From assembly GCF_016026235.1 (NCBI RefSeq), contig NZ_CP065613.1: a stretch of 64,000 nucleotides of DNA. The stretch is one strand, 5' to 3'. Positions 14,550-63,885 of this stretch are shown here, piece by piece; positions within the stretch are counted from its first letter, which is position 1; the number at the start of each line of letters is the position of its first letter. The notes under the pieces were generated by a model. It had not been told where the DNA came from. It saw only the letters and a list, made by a program, of their open reading frames with translations, and ran no database searches. Source of the DNA: Escherichia coli (GTDB taxonomy: Bacteria > Pseudomonadota > Gammaproteobacteria > Enterobacterales > Enterobacteriaceae). Made by a program: the position numbers and the translations under genes.

Positions 14550-14635
14550 TCCAGGCCGGATAAGGCGTTCACGCCGCATCCGGCAATCGAGCACAATGCC
14601 TGATGCGACGCTGCCGCGTCTTATCAGACCTACGA
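14550..14635. repeat. REP (repetitive extragenic palindromic) elements
   Basis: gccggataaggcgttcacgccgcatccggc and gcctgatgcgacgctgccgcgtcttatcag palindromic units. Confidence 0.6.
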
Positions 14636-25529: not shown

Positions 25530-25750
25530 ACCTGATGTGGCGAAAACGCCTTATCCGCCTACAAACGCATGAAGATTCAACATGTTGCAATAGATTTTGT
25601 AGGCCTGATAAGCGTAGCGCATCAGGCATTGAGCACCTAATGCCGGATGCGGCGTGAACGCCTTATCCGGCCTACAAACGCACGAAGATTCAACATGTTG
25701 CAATAGATTTTGTAGGCCTGATGAGCGTAACGCATCAGGCAATTCTACTT
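25530..25750. repeat. BIME-type cluster: tandemly duplicated unit of about 105 bp containing REP palindromes
   Basis: two near-identical copies of gccttatccg...caaacgca.gaagattcaacatgttgcaatagattttgtaggcctgat.agcgta.cgcatcaggca. Confidence 0.7.
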
Positions 25751-31450: not shown

Positions 31451-31554
31451 GCTTTTTACGCCTCAAACTTTCGTTTTCGGGCATTTCGTCCAGACTTAAG
31501 TTCACAACACCTCACCGGAGCCTGCTCCGGTGAGTTCATATAAAGGAGGAACGT

Positions 31555-55447: not shown

Positions 55448-56236
55448 TTAACCTACCTGCACCGACAGCATACTCAGGCTGCCCATTTCTATACCCTCAA
55501 CCGGAATGGTAATTGGCTCCTGCCCATCCCACGCACCTAACACATACAACAACGGCAGATAATGCTCTGGCGTTGGGTTCGATAACGCGCCACCTTCATG
55601 GTCGAGGTAATTCACCAGAGGATGTTGTTCCACTGGCCCTTGCCACGTCAGATTCGCTTTCACATACTCATTAAACGACGTCGCCCACGGATACGGTGAA
55701 CTATCACCGTGCCACTTCACTGTGCGCAGGTTATGCACCACGTTACCGCTGGCGACCAACATTATTCCTTCATCTCGCAGCGCTGCCAGTTTGCGCCCCA
55801 TTTCGAAATGCCAAGCGGCAGGTTTGCTACTGTCGATACTCAACTGCACCATCGGGATATCCGCGTCAGGATACATCTTAATCAGCACGCCCCAGGAACC
55901 GTGGTCAAAGCCCCAGGCTTCTTTATCCAGCGTCACCGGGATCGGCGCTAACAGCTCAACCAGACGCTGTGCCAGCGCAGGCGAACCCGGAGCAGGATAA
56001 TGCGTATCGTACAGCGCCTGCGGGAAGCCACCAAAGTCATGAATCGTGGGCGGCGTCTCCATCGCGGTCACTCCTGTTCCACGGGTAAACCAGTGAGCCG
56101 AAACCACCACAATCGCTTGCGGGCGTGGCAATGTCATCCCCAACTTCTGCCAGCTGCGGGTATACAAATTATCTTCCAGCACGTTCATCGGACTACCGTG
56201 ACCTAAAAACAATGCTGGCATACGTGTTGAAGACAT
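55448..56236 (-). CDS. ygiD: 4,5-DOPA dioxygenase extradiol-like protein
   Basis: 262 aa from MSSTRMPALFLGHGSP. Confidence 0.85.
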   Translation of the reverse strand: MSSTRMPALFLGHGSPMNVLEDNLYTRSWQKLGMTLPRPQAIVVVSAHWFTRGTGVTAMETPPTIHDFGGFPQALYDTHYPAPGSPALAQRLVELLAPIPVTLDKEAWGFDHGSWGVLIKMYPDADIPMVQLSIDSSKPAAWHFEMGRKLAALRDEGIMLVASGNVVHNLRTVKWHGDSSPYPWATSFNEYVKANLTWQGPVEQHPLVNYLDHEGGALSNPTPEHYLPLLYVLGAWDGQEPITIPVEGIEMGSLSMLSVQVG

Positions 56237-56378
56237 GATGATATCCTTAACTAAAGGTGTCATTTTGATATCCTCACAATACGCTTGTTCGGCGGAGTAA
56301 GAACCCGGATAACAATGATGATGATCATCAGTTATTTTGACGATCTGCCTGAAGGTGAAGATTTATAAGGAGTTGTCG

Positions 56379-57152
56379 ATGTCAGTACCTCTCATTCTGA
56401 CCATACTGGCGGGGGCAGCCACGTTTATTGGCGCGTTTCTCGGCGTTCTCGGGCAAAAACCCTCGAACCGCTTACTGGCGTTTTCGCTAGGATTTGCGGC
56501 GGGGATCATGTTGCTCATCTCATTAATGGAAATGCTTCCTGCCGCACTAGCTGCTGAAGGAATGTCGCCTGTGTTGGGTTATGGAATGTTTATCTTCGGT
56601 CTGCTTGGCTATTTTGGCCTGGACCGCATGTTGCCGCATGCGCATCCGCAGGATTTAATGCAAAAATCGGTGCAGCCGTTGCCAAAATCGATCAAGCGCA
56701 CAGCCATACTGCTCACTCTCGGCATCAGTCTGCATAACTTCCCGGAAGGGATTGCCACCTTTGTCACGGCGAGCAGCAACCTGGAGCTAGGCTTTGGCAT
56801 CGCCCTGGCCGTAGCGTTGCACAATATTCCTGAAGGTCTGGCGGTTGCAGGCCCGGTTTACGCGGCAACGGGGTCTAAACGCACGGCAATTCTGTGGGCG
56901 GGGATTTCTGGACTAGCAGAAATTCTTGGTGGTGTGCTGGCGTGGTTAATCCTCGGTAGCATGATTTCCCCGGTGGTCATGGCGGCAATCATGGCGGCGG
57001 TTGCAGGAATTATGGTGGCGCTCTCGGTTGATGAATTAATGCCGCTCGCCAAAGAGATTGACCCTAATAATAACCCCAGCTATGGCGTACTATGTGGAAT
57101 GTCAGTGATGGGATTCAGTTTAGTGCTGCTACAAACGGCGGGAATTGGTTAA
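56379..57152 (+). CDS. zupT: ZIP-family zinc transporter
   Basis: 257 aa from MSVPLILT. Confidence 0.9.
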
Positions 57153-57209
57153 AAGCAACATCAGAAGTTGTCCAGCGCATGGACAACTTCTGCTAGCTTC
57201 ACTAAAGCC

Positions 57210-57380
57210 TTATTCTACCTTTTCGGCTGTCTCTTCTCTCGTACTGTTTAAGTATTTGTTCCGCGCTTCAAGCAGTGCGTCTCTGTCCTGGCGAAACGCC
57301 CGACAATAACGTTTCAAATGCAGGAAATAACCCACCACAACCAGAACAATCAATACAATCCAGTACCAGGCGATAAACAT
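57210..57380 (-). CDS. small single-TM membrane protein
   Basis: short ORF with hydrophobic N-terminus; start uncertain. Confidence 0.35.
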   Translation of the reverse strand: MFIAWYWIVLIVLVVVGYFLHLKRYCRAFRQDRDALLEARNKYLNSTREETAEKVE

Positions 57381-57571
57381 CCTTTTACCCTTAATATTTA
57401 ACAATACTAAACATTTAGCGCATAAATTTCACATATCCTTTTTCGGATATATTCATATGGTCGCATAATAACGGAACAATTATATGATTTTGATCATAAT
57501 GAAAAAGAATGCCTGATATTAATGAAATTTTCTCATAGAAAGAGAAGCGGAATTAACATCTTGCATAGCAG

Positions 57572-57609
57572 GGAAAAATAAAAACCGAAGCCTGCTACAA
57601 CTTCGGTTT
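57572..57609 (-). terminator. rho-independent terminator of ribB
   Basis: aaaccgaag / cttcggttt hairpin with U-run on the minus strand. Confidence 0.6.
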
Positions 57610-57641
57610 CTTGATTAAGGCAGTAAATTAAGCAGCGGTTT

Positions 57642-58295
57642 TCAGCTGGCTTTACGCTCATGTGCCTGACGGTATGCCACCAAGTCTTCAATAGTCACGA
57701 GTGCCATATTGTGTTTATTGGCAAACTCAATGCACTCTGGTGCACGCGCCATCGTGCCATCGTCATTAGTCAGCTCACACAGCACACCAGCCGGTTTAAA
57801 GCCTGCCAGCGTCATTAGATCAATAGTTGCTTCAGTATGACCGCCACGCGTCAGTACACCACCAGCCTGAGCGCGGAGTGGGAAAACGTGGCCCGGGCGA
57901 TTCAGATCAGAAGGTTTTGCGCCATCGGCAATCGCTGCGCGAACGGTCGTAATACGGTCAGCGGCAGAAACACCGGTAGTCACACCTTCAGCCGCTTCAA
58001 TGGTCACGGTAAAACCGGTGCCATAGGCGCTGGTGTTATTTTCTACCATCATTGGCAGATCGAGTTGTTTACGGCGATCTTCAGTAATGCACAGGCAAAC
58101 AATACCGCTACCGTGGCGAATGGTCAGCGCCATCTGCTCAACGGTCATGGTTTCTGCCGGGAAGATCATATCACCTTCGTTTTCACGGTCTTCATCATCA
58201 AGCACCATTACACCGCGTCCTTCACGCAGCGCAGCCAGTGCATTTTCAACACGTTCGAAAGGCGTACCAAAAGAGGAAAGTAGCGTCTGATTCAT
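57642..58295 (-). CDS. ribB: 3,4-dihydroxy-2-butanone-4-phosphate synthase
   Basis: 217 aa. Confidence 0.95.
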
Positions 58296-58319
58296 GGTAA
58301 AAAAACCTCACTAAAATTA

Positions 58320-58560
58320 TGGTTACCAGAATCAGGGCAGTCTTAGGAGTGGCGGCATATAGCCAAAATAACGTGAGCGGGTCCATGCCCGACAGAATCG
58401 TTACTCTCTCCCATCCGGACTCTAACCGTCGGCCCCGGAATTACACCGGATCTGCTGTCCTTTGAGTTCGCACCCAAAGCGCTCGCGGGCTTTCAACTGA
58501 GTTGATTTACCGCCGGTGGGGAATTTCGCCCCGCCCTGAGAATAAGCGGATTCACTATAA
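58320..58560 (-). promoter_or_regulatory. FMN riboswitch (RFN element) in the ribB leader
   Basis: long structured 5' leader; minus-strand sequence contains ggggccgacggttagagtccggatgggagag, matching conserved RFN core segments; boundaries approximate. Confidence 0.6.
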
Positions 58561-58668
58561 CGCTAATGATTAGCGGCAGCAACGCATAGCTTCACATAAT
58601 TCTGGTTTATGACTTACCCTTATCGCACTACAATGGCACTCAACACCTATCAGTACAGGGAAACTACA

Positions 58669-58968
58669 ATGATTGACCCGAAAAAAATTGAGCAAATCGC
58701 TCGCCAGGTTCACGAATCAATGCCTAAAGGAATCAGGGAGTTCGGGGAAGATGTGGAGAAAAAAATCCGCCAAACCCTACAAGCGCAGCTGACGCGTCTC
58801 GATCTGGTGAGCCGCGAAGAATTCGACGTACAGACGCAAGTCCTGTTACAGACTCGTGAAAAACTGGCGTTACTGGAGCAGCGCATCAGTGAACTGGAGG
58901 CGCGCAATAATTCGGTAGCAGATCTTCAATCTCCTCCGGCTATCCCGCCTATTGATAAAGCAGAATAA
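58669..58968 (+). CDS. ubiK: ubiquinone biosynthesis accessory factor (coiled-coil)
   Basis: 99 aa from [13 protein letters not shown]. Confidence 0.8.
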
Positions 58969-58980
58969 AGCAACACAAAA

Positions 58981-58998
58981 ACGGGCCAGACGGCCCGT
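58981..58998. terminator. bidirectional stem-loop between ubiK and glgS
   Basis: acgggcc-aga-cggcccgt. Confidence 0.45.
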
Positions 58999-59002
58999 AA
59001 TA

Positions 59003-59203
59003 TCAGTGTTCTAATTCAAGTTCTCTGGTTTGCATCATCTGTTGGCAATACCAGGCATAACGTGCGCAAAACCAGGTTCTATGTTCTTCATCCATGTTAC
59101 CAGTAACGGCCAGAATATCGACCGGGCGACCTTCTGCGTGCATTCTGGCAAAACTACGCGCCAGGAAATCGAAATTATTTAAAGAATTAAGACTATGATC
59201 CAT
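59003..59203 (-). CDS. glgS: glycogen synthesis / surface composition regulator
   Basis: 66 aa from [18 protein letters not shown]. Confidence 0.85.
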
Positions 59204-59471
59204 AAGCACATCCTCCGGTTATCGCATACCTTTTAAGGCCATATGCTTTTTCTGATTTCAGTATTCCCCAATCAGTGTAGTGCCTTTAAACATAACGTGC
59301 GTAAATATATTGTCCCCGATCACACTTTTTAGTGAAAAATAAAAAACCATATTAAAAGACTTTCTCTTCCAGAACTTCTCTAACGTGTGTTATTATTAAT
59401 AAAGATAAATGTAAGCAAGGAAACTATCCCAAAGTGAATATTGCGTCACTAAATGGACATTGGAGTGACAT

Positions 59472-60101
59472 ATGATTTTATTCGCCGACTATAATACCCC
59501 TTATCTTTTCGCTATTTCCTTTGTACTGTTGATCGGCCTTTTAGAAATTTTTGCGCTTATCTGCGGTCACATGCTCTCCGGTGCTCTTGATGCACATCTT
59601 GACCATTATGATTCCATAACCACAGGTCATATTAGCCAGGCACTTCATTATCTCAATATCGGAAGATTGCCAGCTCTCGTCGTTCTCTGCTTGCTGGCTG
59701 GTTTTTTTGGTCTTATTGGCATCCTGTTGCAGCATGCCTGCATCATGGTCTGGCAATCACCACTGTCGAACCTGTTCGTGGTTCCTGTCAGTTTACTGTT
59801 TACGATTATTGCGGTGCATTATACCGGTAAAATAGTTGCGCCCTGGATTCCACGCGACCATAGTTCAGCTATTACAGAAGAAGAATATATTGGTAGCATG
59901 GCATTAATTACCGGTCATCAAGCCACTTCAGGTAATCCCTGCGAAGGAAAACTCACCGATCAATTTGGCCAAATACATTATTTACTACTGGAGCCTGAAG
60001 AAGGAAAAATTTTCACTAAAGGAGACAAAGTGTTAATTATTTGCCGACTTTCTGCAACGCGATATTTGGCGGAAAACAATCCCTGGCCCCAAATATTGTA
60101 A
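59472..60101 (+). CDS. yqiJ: inner-membrane protein
   Basis: 209 aa. Confidence 0.8.
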
Positions 60102-60127
60102 TTTATTAATCAAAAGGAAATTTAATA

Positions 60128-61789
60128 ATGGATGATATTGTTAATTCTGTGCCCTCCTGGATGTTTACCGCGATTATTGCCGTATGCATTCTGTTTATTA
60201 TTGGAATTATTTTCGCCAGGCTCTATCGTCGCGCTTCAGCAGAGCAAGCATTTGTCCGTACCGGCTTAGGGGGGCAAAAAGTGGTAATGAGCGGTGGCGC
60301 AATCGTGATGCCGATCTTTCATGAAATAATCCCCATCAATATGAATACTCTGAAGCTGGAAGTCAGCCGCTCAACCATTGATAGCCTGATTACGAAAGAT
60401 CGTATGCGCGTCGATGTAGTAGTCGCTTTCTTTGTGCGGGTAAAACCTTCAGTAGAAGGGATTGCCACCGCTGCCCAGACGCTGGGGCAACGCACCCTGT
60501 CGCCTGAAGACTTACGTATGTTGGTTGAAGATAAATTTGTCGATGCCCTCCGTGCAACAGCTGCGCAAATGACCATGCATGAGTTACAGGATACCCGCGA
60601 GAACTTCGTGCAGGGAGTACAAAATACCGTAGCTGAAGATCTGTCGAAAAACGGCCTGGAACTGGAAAGCGTTTCACTTACCAACTTTAACCAGACCTCG
60701 AAAGAACATTTCAATCCGAACAATGCCTTTGACGCCGAAGGTTTAACCAAACTGACTCAGGAGACGGAGCGCCGTCGCCGCGAGCGTAACGAAGTTGAAC
60801 AGGATGTAGAAGTTGCGGTGCGTGAGAAAAACCGTGATGCACTTTCGCGCAAGTTGGAGATTGAACAACAAGAAGCGTTTATGACGCTTGAGCAGGAGCA
60901 GCAAGTTAAAACCCGTACCGCTGAACAAAATGCGAAAATTGCTGCTTTTGAAGCTGAACGTCGTCGTGAAGCAGAGCAGACGCGAATTCTGGCTGAACGA
61001 CAGATTCAGGAAACAGAAATCGACCGCGAACAGGCCGTCCGCTCAAGAAAAGTTGAAGCTGAACGTGAAGTTCGCATTAAAGAGATCGAACAGCAGCAGG
61101 TCACCGAAATCGCTAACCAGACGAAATCGATCGCTATTGCCGCCAAATCGGAACAACAGTCCCAGGCAGAAGCGCGTGCTAACCTTGCACTCGCAGAAGC
61201 AGTAAGCGCCCAACAAAACGTAGAAACCACTCGCCAGACAGCCGAAGCCGATCGTGCCAAGCAGGTGGCGCTGATTGCCGCAGCACAGGATGCAGAAACC
61301 AAAGCGGTTGAACTGACCGTGCGGGCGAAAGCAGAAAAAGAAGCCGCAGAGATGCAGGCGGCGGCGATCGTTGAGTTAGCCGAAGCTACGCGTAAAAAAG
61401 GCCTGGCGGAAGCAGAAGCACAACGTGCGCTGAACGATGCTATCAACGTACTTTCTGACGAACAAACCAGCCTTAAATTCAAACTGGCCTTGTTGCAGGC
61501 GCTACCTGCGGTAATAGAGAAATCCGTGGAACCAATGAAGTCCATTGACGGTATCAAGATTATTCAGGTCGATGGTCTGAATCGTGGTGGTACTGCGGGG
61601 GATGCAAACACGGGTAATGTGGGGGGCGGAAACCTGGCGGAACAAGCATTATCAGCCGCACTCTCTTACCGCACACAGGCACCACTGATTGACTCCTTGC
61701 TCAATGAAATTGGCGTTTCAGGCGGCTCACTGGCTGCATTGACTTCACCCTTAACCTCAACAACTCCCGTCGCCGAAAACGTAGAATAA
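60128..61789 (+). CDS. yqiK: SPFH/band-7 (flotillin-like) protein with long coiled-coil
   Basis: 553 aa. Confidence 0.85.
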   Translation: MDDIVNSVPSWMFTAIIAVCILFIIGIIFARLYRRASAEQAFVRTGLGGQKVVMSGGAIVMPIFHEIIPINMNTLKLEVSRSTIDSLITKDRMRVDVVVAFFVRVKPSVEGIATAAQTLGQRTLSPEDLRMLVEDKFVDALRATAAQMTMHELQDTRENFVQGVQNTVAEDLSKNGLELESVSLTNFNQTSKEHFNPNNAFDAEGLTKLTQETERRRRERNEVEQDVEVAVREKNRDALSRKLEIEQQEAFMTLEQEQQVKTRTAEQNAKIAAFEAERRREAEQTRILAERQIQETEIDREQAVRSRKVEAEREVRIKEIEQQQVTEIANQTKSIAIAAKSEQQSQAEARANLALAEAVSAQQNVETTRQTAEADRAKQVALIAAAQDAETKAVELTVRAKAEKEAAEMQAAAIVELAEATRKKGLAEAEAQRALNDAINVLSDEQTSLKFKLALLQALPAVIEKSVEPMKSIDGIKIIQVDGLNRGGTAGDANTGNVGGGNLAEQALSAALSYRTQAPLIDSLLNEIGVSGGSLAALTSPLTSTTPVAENVE

Positions 61790-61974: not shown

Positions 61975-62114
61975 GCTGAAACGGGAAAGCCCCTCCCGAA
62001 GAAGGGGCCTTGTATAAGGAAAGGGTTATGATGAAGCTCGTCATCATACTGATTGTGTTGTTACTCGTAAGTTTCGCAGCTTATTAACAGCCAATCAGAG
62101 GGGGGAGAAATCCT
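61975..62114 (-). ncRNA. sibD: SibD antitoxin sRNA body (antisense to ibsD), separated from its promoter by the IS insertion
   Basis: sequence homologous to the intact second copy; boundaries inferred. Confidence 0.4.
62028..62087 (+). CDS. ibsD: type I toxin peptide Ibs (19 aa, MMKLVIILIVLLLVSFAAY)
   Basis: direct translation; hydrophobic 19-mer. Confidence 0.8.
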   Translation: MMKLVIILIVLLLVSFAAY

Positions 62115-63407
62115 CTGAGGGATCCCCAGAAAATTTAGTAAACCATTATCATATTGGTATACCGTTGCTGTAGAACTTTCAGCCCTGCGTCAAATGACAG
62201 TGTGTTTAGTATGAGTGGAGAATGTCGAATCACATTCTCCGCCAGTTTTAATAACGAGATGACTCGCCTGTGCTTCACTGTATTTGCCTGATATTTATGA
62301 TGTATCCCTTTGTTTTCCAGGCTGAAACCGCTTAACCACATAATGATACTGGCTAATGTTGCGATCAGACTCAATACCGTGACCCGCCCGGATGAATGAC
62401 TGGCACCAAACCGTAGTCCAAATCCCCAGCGAGGATTTTTTTCATCCCTGAAATTTTGCTCAATTTGCATTCTACGGCTGTATAATTTCATTACCTGTTT
62501 TGGCGAGAACTCAGTACTGTTTGTGAAAATAAACCATGGTGATTTCCCGGCAGTACGAGCTTTAGCCGTCACCGATGGTCTGGTTGCTCTTTCCTTCGAG
62601 CGTTTAAATCTACGACCTTTAGGCTTACTTTTATAAAGATAAAAATGCCCTTCATGTTGTGCATTTTTATCTCGACCCAGCAGGCCTTCACCTAAATAAA
62701 TTGCTGTCGTTGATGCTTTTGTGCCTGAGTCCGACACCTTTTCCCAGCCATTACCAACATTGTAATAATGATTGCCCAGTACCCGGCAAATATAGGTCCA
62801 GCCACGGGAGCGGAGCTGTTGGAACCATCGCCCCTGAAAACCGGCATCTGTAATAACAATGACATCAGTCCCGGGGGAAAAGCACTCAGCAAGCGATTCC
62901 AGAAAACGCTCATGTACATCTGCATTCGCTGTCTGTGATGATGGAACGACACAACTCATCAACGGTAAAGAACGCCCGTCACATGCCAGGCTTGCCCGCA
63001 AAAGCTGAAAACGAGAGGCATGATAAGCACTCCAGTCAATGAGTATCACAACACGAGACATTCCCGCGTAATCTTTTGGGTAATTCGCTGAAAAATGGTG
63101 GAAACCTCATTTTGCAAATGTCGATTCCCCAACAGTCGATCCACCCGCTTTATTTTGTTTTTAACTGATGCCGTACCGGTTAAATGACGCCCGATACTGG
63201 TAAGTGTGAGGGAAGCGCCATTTATTACAGCATTAGTTGCGTCAATCAGTGATTTTTGACGGTAAAGATGCAAAGGGGCCAGTATATTGTTAAGGAAATT
63301 TTGGCATAATGAACGTGCAGGCATAGTGGTGATCTCCTTGAAATTGTTAGCACAATCAATTAGATCACATCTCACTATGCCTGTCTTGTTTTCTGGGGAT
63401 TCCTCAG
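62115..63407 (-). mobile_element. IS4-family, IS10-like insertion sequence (1293 bp)
   Basis: 19-bp imperfect terminal inverted repeats ctgagggatccccagaaaa / ctgaggaatccccagaaaa; flanked by direct repeats gagaaatcct (9-10 bp target-site duplication) that are single-copy in the second ibs/sib repeat. Confidence 0.8.
62135..63324 (-). CDS. IS10-like DDE transposase, encoded in two overlapping frames (possible frameshift near 63046-63061)
   Basis: N-terminal part (MPARSLCQ...NRHLQNE) and C-terminal part (VILIDWS...LYSRRMQIEQNFRDEK) both align by eye to IS10 transposase; reading frame changes between ITRE and SRVVIL. Confidence 0.7.
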
Positions 63408-63654: not shown

Positions 63655-63805
63655 CTGAAACGGGAAAGCCCCTCCCGAGGAAGGGGCCTTATAGAAGGAA
63701 AGGGTTATGATGAAGCTCGTCATCATACTGGTTGTGTTGTTACTGTTAAGTTTCCCGACTTACTAACAACTGATCAGAGGGGGGAGAAATCCTCCCTTAC
63801 CCTTG
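63655..63805 (-). ncRNA. sibE: SibE antitoxin sRNA (antisense to ibsE)
   Basis: predicted promoter at 63813-63841 and a hairpin plus U-rich tract near 63655-63690 on the minus strand; boundaries approximate. Confidence 0.45.
63707..63766 (+). CDS. ibsE: type I toxin peptide Ibs (19 aa, MMKLVIILVVLLLLSFPTY)
   Basis: direct translation. Confidence 0.8.
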   Translation: MMKLVIILVVLLLLSFPTY

Positions 63806-63885
63806 TTCCTTTACTCTAGGTTGAAAAAACAACAGCGTCAATAGGCCTGCCATGTACGAAGCGAGATCTGTGAACCGCTTTCCGG

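Follow-up and report, generated by a model that had tools for sequence, protein, structure and literature searches.

The long untranslated leader upstream of ribB, on the minus strand of the 64,000-nt stretch of Escherichia coli DNA analyzed here (the window), raises the question of what regulatory element it holds, where that element begins and ends, and how it could control ribB. The initial annotation had read the leader as an FMN riboswitch and had proposed a covariance scan with the Rfam RFN model as the check. In our Rfam 15 scan of the 5 kb from 56000 to 61000, run with permissive filters, RF00050 (FMN/RFN) matched 58399..58547 on the minus strand with 120.9 bits at E = 8.6e-29, almost double the gathering score (66.2). 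This match spans model positions 1-138 of 138 without truncation, so that the reading came through its own check. The same match was obtained when the whole window was scanned at gathering thresholds (E = 1.1e-27). The AUG of ribB follows 104 nt downstream of the aptamer's end, and the gene lies on the same strand (57642..58295, minus). The ribB CDS is a 217-aa ATG ORF, named ribB in RefSeq, that codes for 3,4-dihydroxy-2-butanone-4-phosphate synthase, and its product matches Pfam PF00926 (DHBP_synthase, 6.2e-84). The leader is long, as had been claimed, running 252 nt from its probable transcription start at G58547 to the AUG at 58295. In FDAARGOS_943, the "FMN riboswitch" feature assigned by PGAP covers exactly the 149 nt of the Rfam match. 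The extent first proposed, 58320..58560, takes in the -10 box, the complete aptamer and roughly 70% of the platform, but it ends about 33 nt short on the 3' side and leaves out the Shine-Dalgarno sequence (58309..58306), the AUG (58295..58293) and the sequestering stem's 3' strand (58300..58287). With corrected limits, the aptamer lies at 58399..58547 and the complete switch at 58287..58547; the promoter reaches 58582. Two further Rfam matches were set aside as noise, namely an AdoCbl-II match at 58401..58469 that overlaps the FMN match (22.3 bits against a gathering score of 36.5), and a snoZ105 match in the 5-kb scan that was below its gathering score.

The sequence of this leader is that of the K-12 ribB leader. 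Over 58270..58680, which contains the promoter, the leader and the first ribB codons, the window and K-12 MG1655 are identical at 411/411 positions, and the expectation of a known element was correct. Because the leader is identical, the experiments on the K-12 ribB leader apply here without qualification. Others have reported for that leader FMN binding, translational sequestration with protection of P1 and the sequestering stem, pausing at positions 175/181 and 247-249, and Rho-dependent termination (PMC11571811, PMC5499598, PMC10085680). The nascent K-12 transcript switches at about 0.06-0.2 uM FMN (Kswitch; PMC11571811), and photoaffinity labelling of the RNA is competed by roseoflavin (PMC9204756). 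Judged by its identity to the K-12 leader, the present leader should likewise bind FMN. A megablast search with 57500..58800 found the region in 5425/5426 complete E. coli genomes, with a 100% match in two strains, in which the match carries the ribB, riboswitch and ubiK features. The leader alone (58287..58582) was at least 99% identical in 4958/5425 E. coli genomes, and one E. coli genome of 5,426 had no ribB leader match at all. The leader matches in the E. coli collection numbered 5,428; one of them was on a record classed as a plasmid, and a few genomes had two copies. A chance or decayed look-alike of the RFN element without function can be dismissed for all practical purposes, as it is excluded by the E-value over the full model and by the identity to an experimentally characterized element, and is opposed by the preservation of the leader in 5425/5426 E. 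coli genomes and, with covariation, across 37 species. The element is almost certainly the reference E. coli ribB FMN riboswitch itself, an OFF switch at the level of translation as well as of transcription. As a riboswitch it is already known and ordinary, not a discovery.

Transcript positions are counted from G58547 on the minus strand, where position n corresponds to window position 58548-n. This putative +1 was chosen by its fit to the published K-12 numbering (Eschbach et al., 2024; PMC11571811), and the fit is exact, placing C175/G176 at 58373/58372 and U181 at 58367. The AUG then occupies positions 253-255 (58295..58293), just past the published pause at 247-249. A putative -10 hexamer, TATAGT (58554..58559, minus), is read 6 nt upstream of G58547, and a putative -35 hexamer, TTGCTG (58577..58582, minus), lies 17 nt upstream of the -10. 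TATAGT, which stands inside AGCGTTATAGT, is kept in nearly all aligned Enterobacterales, and the arrangement TTGC...TATAGT is kept in 27 Enterobacterales ribB upstream regions. The ribB promoter went unreported in a consensus promoter scan, as its -35 agrees with TTGACA at only 3/6 positions. We infer the start site and the -35 and -10 boxes of ribB from this numbering and these motifs. The spacer between the putative boxes contains a perfect 15-nt palindrome, CGCTAATCATTAGCG (58561..58575, minus), whose right half is kept within AGCGTTATAGT and whose left half is only partly kept in other Enterobacteriaceae. From its sequence, the palindrome could be an operator or a coincidence.

The structure of the leader was compared across species. 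A DNA-pattern scan of species-representative genomes with a 23-base P6/J6-1 pattern gave 120 loci, at 39 of which ribB starts shortly downstream of the aptamer. The alignment comprised 37 leaders, including that of this window, 30 from other Enterobacterales, two from Vibrio, one each from Pleionea, Kiloniella and Thalassospira, and one from a MAG. The FMN aptamer, or RFN element, occupies transcript positions 1-149 (58399..58547, minus; RF00050, RefSeq), and all consensus helices of the six-helix RFN architecture, in which P1 closes the junction with P2-P6, could be aligned. One non-standard pair was flagged in P4, and it is non-standard in all 37 relatives too. According to the Rfam consensus structure, the P1 3' strand lies at positions 140-147 (58401..58408, minus) and, in the FMN-bound state, forms pairs with positions 3-10 (58545..58538); the isolated P1 duplex has an energy of -8.7 kcal/mol, and 92.5% of its alignment cells are paired in the 37 species. 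In P2, P3, P5 and P6, 100% of the cells are paired across the leaders. The junction blocks AGGGC, ACCGGCGGU, AGCCCGCGAGC, CAGCAGA, GCCGACGGU and AGUCCGGAUGGGAGA are invariant or nearly so, with the qualification that GCCGACGGU and AGUCCGGAUGGGAGA fall inside the pattern by which the leaders were selected, the invariance of which is by construction.

The expression platform spans positions 150-261, down to window position 58287. Its first part is a small hairpin, CGGG-CAUGGA-CCCG (58378..58391, positions 157-170, minus), which is predicted in every fold, is enclosed by the anti*-P1 stem and lies shortly before the pauses published for 175 and 181. The anti*-P1 stem is formed by positions 141-149 (AGAGUAACG; 58407..58399), which are fully complementary to positions 175-183 (CGUUAUUUU; 58365..58373, minus) with just two G-C pairs. 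The pairing was read from the sequence and also appears in the unconstrained MFE structure, and this stem, with its two G-C pairs, has been described and mutated in K-12 (PMC11571811). The pause sites C175 and U181 both lie within the 3' strand of this stem. In the MFE structure, CUCCU (58345..58349, positions 199-203, minus) pairs with GGGAG (136-140; 58412..58408), a pairing that would extend the anti*-P1 helix; together the stem and this extension amount to -13.0 kcal/mol. The switching sequence CUGCCCUGAUUCUGGUAA (58323..58340, positions 208-225, minus) has complementarities, read from the sequence, that allow two mutually exclusive pairings. In the sequestering stem of 13 bp, CUGAUUCUGGUAA (213-225; 58335..58323) pairs with UUACCAUGAAUCAG (248-261; 58300..58287, minus), the 3' strand that holds the AUG (58295..58293) and codons 2-3. 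U254 of the AUG is bulged, and the stem has an energy of -16.7 kcal/mol and is present in all folds. In anti-P1, a helix of 9 + 5 bp with -18.6 kcal/mol, CUGCCCUGA (208-216) pairs with positions 9-17 and GGUAA (221-225) with positions 3-7, so that the helix has strands in common with P1 as well as with the sequestering stem. The conserved Shine-Dalgarno sequence GAGG (58306..58309, positions 239-242, minus) was read 10 nt upstream of the AUG; it sits in the apical part of the sequestering hairpin and pairs weakly in the folds with the apical U-run. The platform therefore has the two parts of a translational platform that sequesters the SD and AUG, namely an occluding helix and an alternative helix that shares a P1 strand. 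FMN protects positions 137-146 and 215-227 of the K-12 leader from RNase H and exposes 184-193 (PMC11571811). In the published model of the ON state, the two ends of the aptamer are each held in helices, which agrees with the helices described here, and the structure of positions 150-210 was called unsettled in PMC11571811.

From these parts and the published work on K-12, the switch most probably operates as follows. Transcription most likely starts at G58547, and the first 149 nt fold into the six-helix RFN aptamer. Binding of FMN locks P1 (3-10 with 140-147), leaving CUGAUUCUGGUAA (213-225) free to pair with UUACCAUGAAUCAG (248-261), and the resulting stem buries the start codon and holds the SD in a closed hairpin, so that ribosomes cannot initiate. 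At the same time, FMN binding exposes a C-rich, unstructured part of the platform on which Rho can load, and the polymerase is then stopped by Rho inside the platform or close to where ribB begins. With FMN scarce, P1 lacks this stabilization, and its 3' strand is taken by CGUUAUUUU (175-183) and CUCCU (199-203), while its 5' strand and the invariant UCAGGGCGG core (3-17) are taken by CUGCCCUGA...GGUAA (208-225). Since anti-P1 takes the 5' strand of the sequestering stem, the RBS opens and ribB is transcribed and translated.

Both sets of helices are supported by the alignment. [quoted passage not shown] The sequestering stem alone is paired in 97.1% of cells in the 37 species, with two compensatory pairs. 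The 9-bp core of anti-P1 is paired in 97.9% of cells across species, and the changes found there are wobble-neutral only. For anti*-P1 the value is 84-86%, and compensatory changes occur, such as AACG/CGUU in E. coli and AACAG/CUGUU in Xenorhabdus. The CUCCU pairing is present in 91.4% of cells in the 37 species, and the ACUCCU box is kept in Enterobacterales. GCCCUG(A/G)UUC hardly varies among the 37 leaders; A216G is the only frequent change in the switching box, and this base faces a U in both alternative helices. Covariation is clear where the sequence is free to vary, in the P3/P4 extensions and the platform hairpin, where taken together 161 cells are changed on both sides compared with 48 in shuffles, and the covariation score is 0.654 compared with 0.235, a level that 0/500 shuffles reached. 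In the platform hairpin itself, 4/4 pairs are changed on both sides across species (CGGG/CCCG, CAGG/CCUG, CGAG/CUCG). The support for anti-P1 and the sequestering helix is mostly conservation, with few true compensatory changes, and the strands of both are under a further constraint, from the aptamer core or from coding. A 46-aa ATG ORF (58246..58386, minus) also lies within the leader and overlaps the start of ribB out of frame. It was rejected as a leader peptide, as the covarying hairpin 157-170 has this ATG (58386) for its loop and most other genera lack it.

Folding energies carry little weight in this argument. The unconstrained leader has an MFE of -91.1 kcal/mol and retains the sequestering stem. 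When the ON model was enforced (-80.3 kcal/mol), the unpaired probability of the AUG rose only from 0.35 to 0.59, and the SD was still predicted to be paired. Nearest-neighbour folding of the leader, whether unconstrained or with the OFF or ON structure enforced, did not reproduce the switch or discriminate between its states, and the folding z-score of the whole leader is unremarkable (-1.03). With the sequestering stem in every fold and a plain z-score, the energies neither prove nor disprove the switch, and since the energy models are indecisive, we rely on the comparative and the published evidence.

The transcriptional arm of the switch appears to depend on Rho. Positions 161-230 (58318..58387, minus) form a C-rich, G-poor stretch in which C/G, computed in 40-nt windows, reaches 2.0. 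This composition fits a rut region, and the stretch is our candidate for it, with the exact rut site inferred within the platform. Consistent with this, the rut site that FMN exposes has been assigned to the expression platform in previous reports (PMC11571811, PMC5499598, PMC10085680). In K-12, the control of RNAP occupancy at ribB is lost in the rho R66S mutant, and the Rho termination score is 3.1 (PMC5499598). The ligand opens the rut site (PMC10085680, PMC12360218) and raises Rho termination in a purified system (PMC10085680), and a review classes ribB as direct rut unmasking (PMC12360218). Alternatively, the switch could be purely translational, with Rho termination following indirectly from a naked, untranslated ribB mRNA in the manner of thiM and no rut site directly unmasked. 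No platform element is better supported or more conserved than the sequestering stem, Bastet et al. showed the indirect route for thiM, a second stretch with C>G lies in the first codons (positions 251-300), and the rut site in the leader is a candidate stretch with approximate limits, all of which would suit such a switch. However, ribB has been classed as direct, with the ligand exposing the leader rut (PMC5499598, Fig. 7A text; PMC12360218, table), positions 184-193 are more accessible with FMN, and the ligand modulates Rho termination in the purified system, which has no ribosomes (PMC10085680). The indirect route is contradicted by these ribosome-free assays, and as a full account of the switch it is unlikely, although it is possible in part.

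The leader could also be a Bacillus-type attenuator, in which FMN would favor an intrinsic terminator hairpin and RNAP would stop without Rho. The GC hairpin 157-170 is followed about 8 nt later by the U-rich UUAUUUU (with up to 7 U in other Enterobacteriaceae), the polymerase pauses at 175 and 181, and Pedrolli (2015), as cited in the introduction of PMC11571811, is given there for action at the transcriptional level. Against this, the stem of the hairpin is only 4 pairs long and does not adjoin the U-run, the U-run is itself the 3' strand of anti*-P1, and transcriptional control is lost in the rho mutant. On the minus strand, a terminator scan gave nothing resembling an intrinsic terminator within the leader; its only good sites nearby were the ribB terminator (57611..57580) and the glgS/ubiK terminator (58998..58981). 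An attenuator is accordingly very unlikely, and Rho-dependent termination with direct unmasking of a rut site in the leader remains the preferred reading of the transcriptional arm.

The conservation of the platform extends into the coding sequence. AUG AAU CAG (58287..58295) and AUGAAUCAG are invariant in 37/37 leaders, synonymous third positions included, and the invariance of codons 1-3 extends from E. coli to Vibrio and two alphaproteobacteria. Judging from the sequences, the constraint on ribB codons 1-3 is likely to come from the sequestering stem rather than from the protein. Platforms of the E. coli type (GCC[CU]UG[AG]UUC ... AUGAAUCAG) were also seen outside Gammaproteobacteria, in Thalassospira, Kiloniella and a MAG labelled Candidatus Kaiserbacteria, and RibB is 66-71% identical at these three loci. 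They could reflect horizontal transfer or, for the MAG, mis-binning. Taking GCCCUG(A/G)UUC and AUG AAU CAG together, the two are invariant or nearly so in E. coli, in Vibrio and Pleionea, and as far away as Thalassospira and Kiloniella, which are alphaproteobacteria. A more far-reaching view would hold that the whole platform, fused to ribB, is a unit that is either deeply conserved or moves horizontally, that SroG has a role in trans, and that the spacer palindrome is an unrecognised operator; we regard this combination as speculative and rather improbable. If the platform were such a unit, the N-terminus of RibB would be fixed by RNA structure and not by protein function.

The ribB leader is also the source of the RNA called SroG, a name that occurs as sroG in a plasmid name. 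It could therefore be asked whether the main product of the locus is a stable sRNA that acts in trans, with the cis control of ribB being secondary. The sRNA name of the leader, found in a plasmid name and in the literature, speaks for such a product, and terminated leaders of other riboswitches have functions in trans. However, no trans target of SroG is given in any of the papers found, and the cis functions (aptamer, switching helices and RBS) account for all of the conserved elements. The conserved 3' part overlaps the start codon of ribB and so cannot belong to an sRNA of about 150 nt. A primary role as an sRNA is thus hardly probable, and the cis-acting switch described above is retained.

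Several other features of the window were recorded. The ribB gene ends in an intrinsic terminator (57580..57611, minus) with a 13-pair hairpin and a U-run, 31 nt past the stop codon. An STnc240 match at 57573..57643 (minus; 29.1 bits against 55) was rejected, as it corresponds to this hairpin and U-run. On the other side of the leader, ubiK (stop at 58968) is followed directly by the convergent glgS (59003..59203, minus), with a junction at 58969..59003, and the terminator scan found a hairpin terminator shared by glgS and ubiK at 58981..58998. In K-12 MG1655, by contrast, the fimbrial ygiL-yqiG genes and IS2 come after ubiK, and they are absent from this strain. As glgS follows ubiK directly, the fimbrial operon is missing from this strain and likewise from FDAARGOS_943, in which the flanking genes are yqiK, yqiJ, glgS, ubiK, ribB, yqiD, zupT and ygiD. 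YqiD, so named in RefSeq, is a 56-aa ORF (57210..57380, minus) with a hydrophobic N-terminus and a sub-threshold match to DUF2621 (20.5 bits against 27.7). Two Sib antitoxin RNAs (RF00113) were found on the minus strand at 62013..62152 and 63692..63841, with 81.7 and 140.9 bits; they presumably belong to SibD/SibE, type I toxin-antitoxin loci that lie downstream of yqiK. The sRNA ES173 (31453..31516, plus; 99 bits) and two naRNA4/CssrE repeats at 14554..14630 (plus) and 25602..25672 (minus), with 84.8 and 68.1 bits, all scored above their gathering scores.

In E. coli, riboflavin supply is set by the ribB switch, which is targeted by ribocil and roseoflavin, both antibacterial candidates, and serves as a model for riboswitch control of Rho-dependent termination. 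The present analysis adds exact coordinates for all functional parts and compares the ON and OFF helices across 37 species. Compared with the K-12 ribB switch, the gene context is the same (ubiK, then ribB, yqiD and zupT), as are the aptamer, the sequestering stem, anti-P1, anti*-P1 and the bases of the pause sites, and there is no difference within the element. The ribD switch of B. subtilis (ribDEAHT) belongs to the same RFN aptamer family, with six helices and FMN as the ligand, and is also an OFF switch for riboflavin biosynthesis. The B. subtilis ribD switch uses an intrinsic terminator and an antiterminator, whereas the E. coli leader has no intrinsic terminator and relies instead on a stem that sequesters the SD and AUG and on Rho-dependent termination. 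The B. subtilis FMN switch has been described as transcriptional and kinetically driven (PMC11571811, introduction). In Corynebacterium glutamicum, the ribM switch has an FMN aptamer and involves Rho (PMC12360218, table), but it controls a riboflavin transporter and also acts through mRNA decay; this likeness was drawn from its description. The thiM, thiC and lysC switches of E. coli show the same competition between P1 and anti-P1, RBS sequestration, a pause near the start codon and a lowering of mRNA by Rho, with other aptamers and ligands (TPP, lysine). In thiM, Rho acts indirectly through the loss of translation, whereas ribB is classed as direct unmasking of a rut site.
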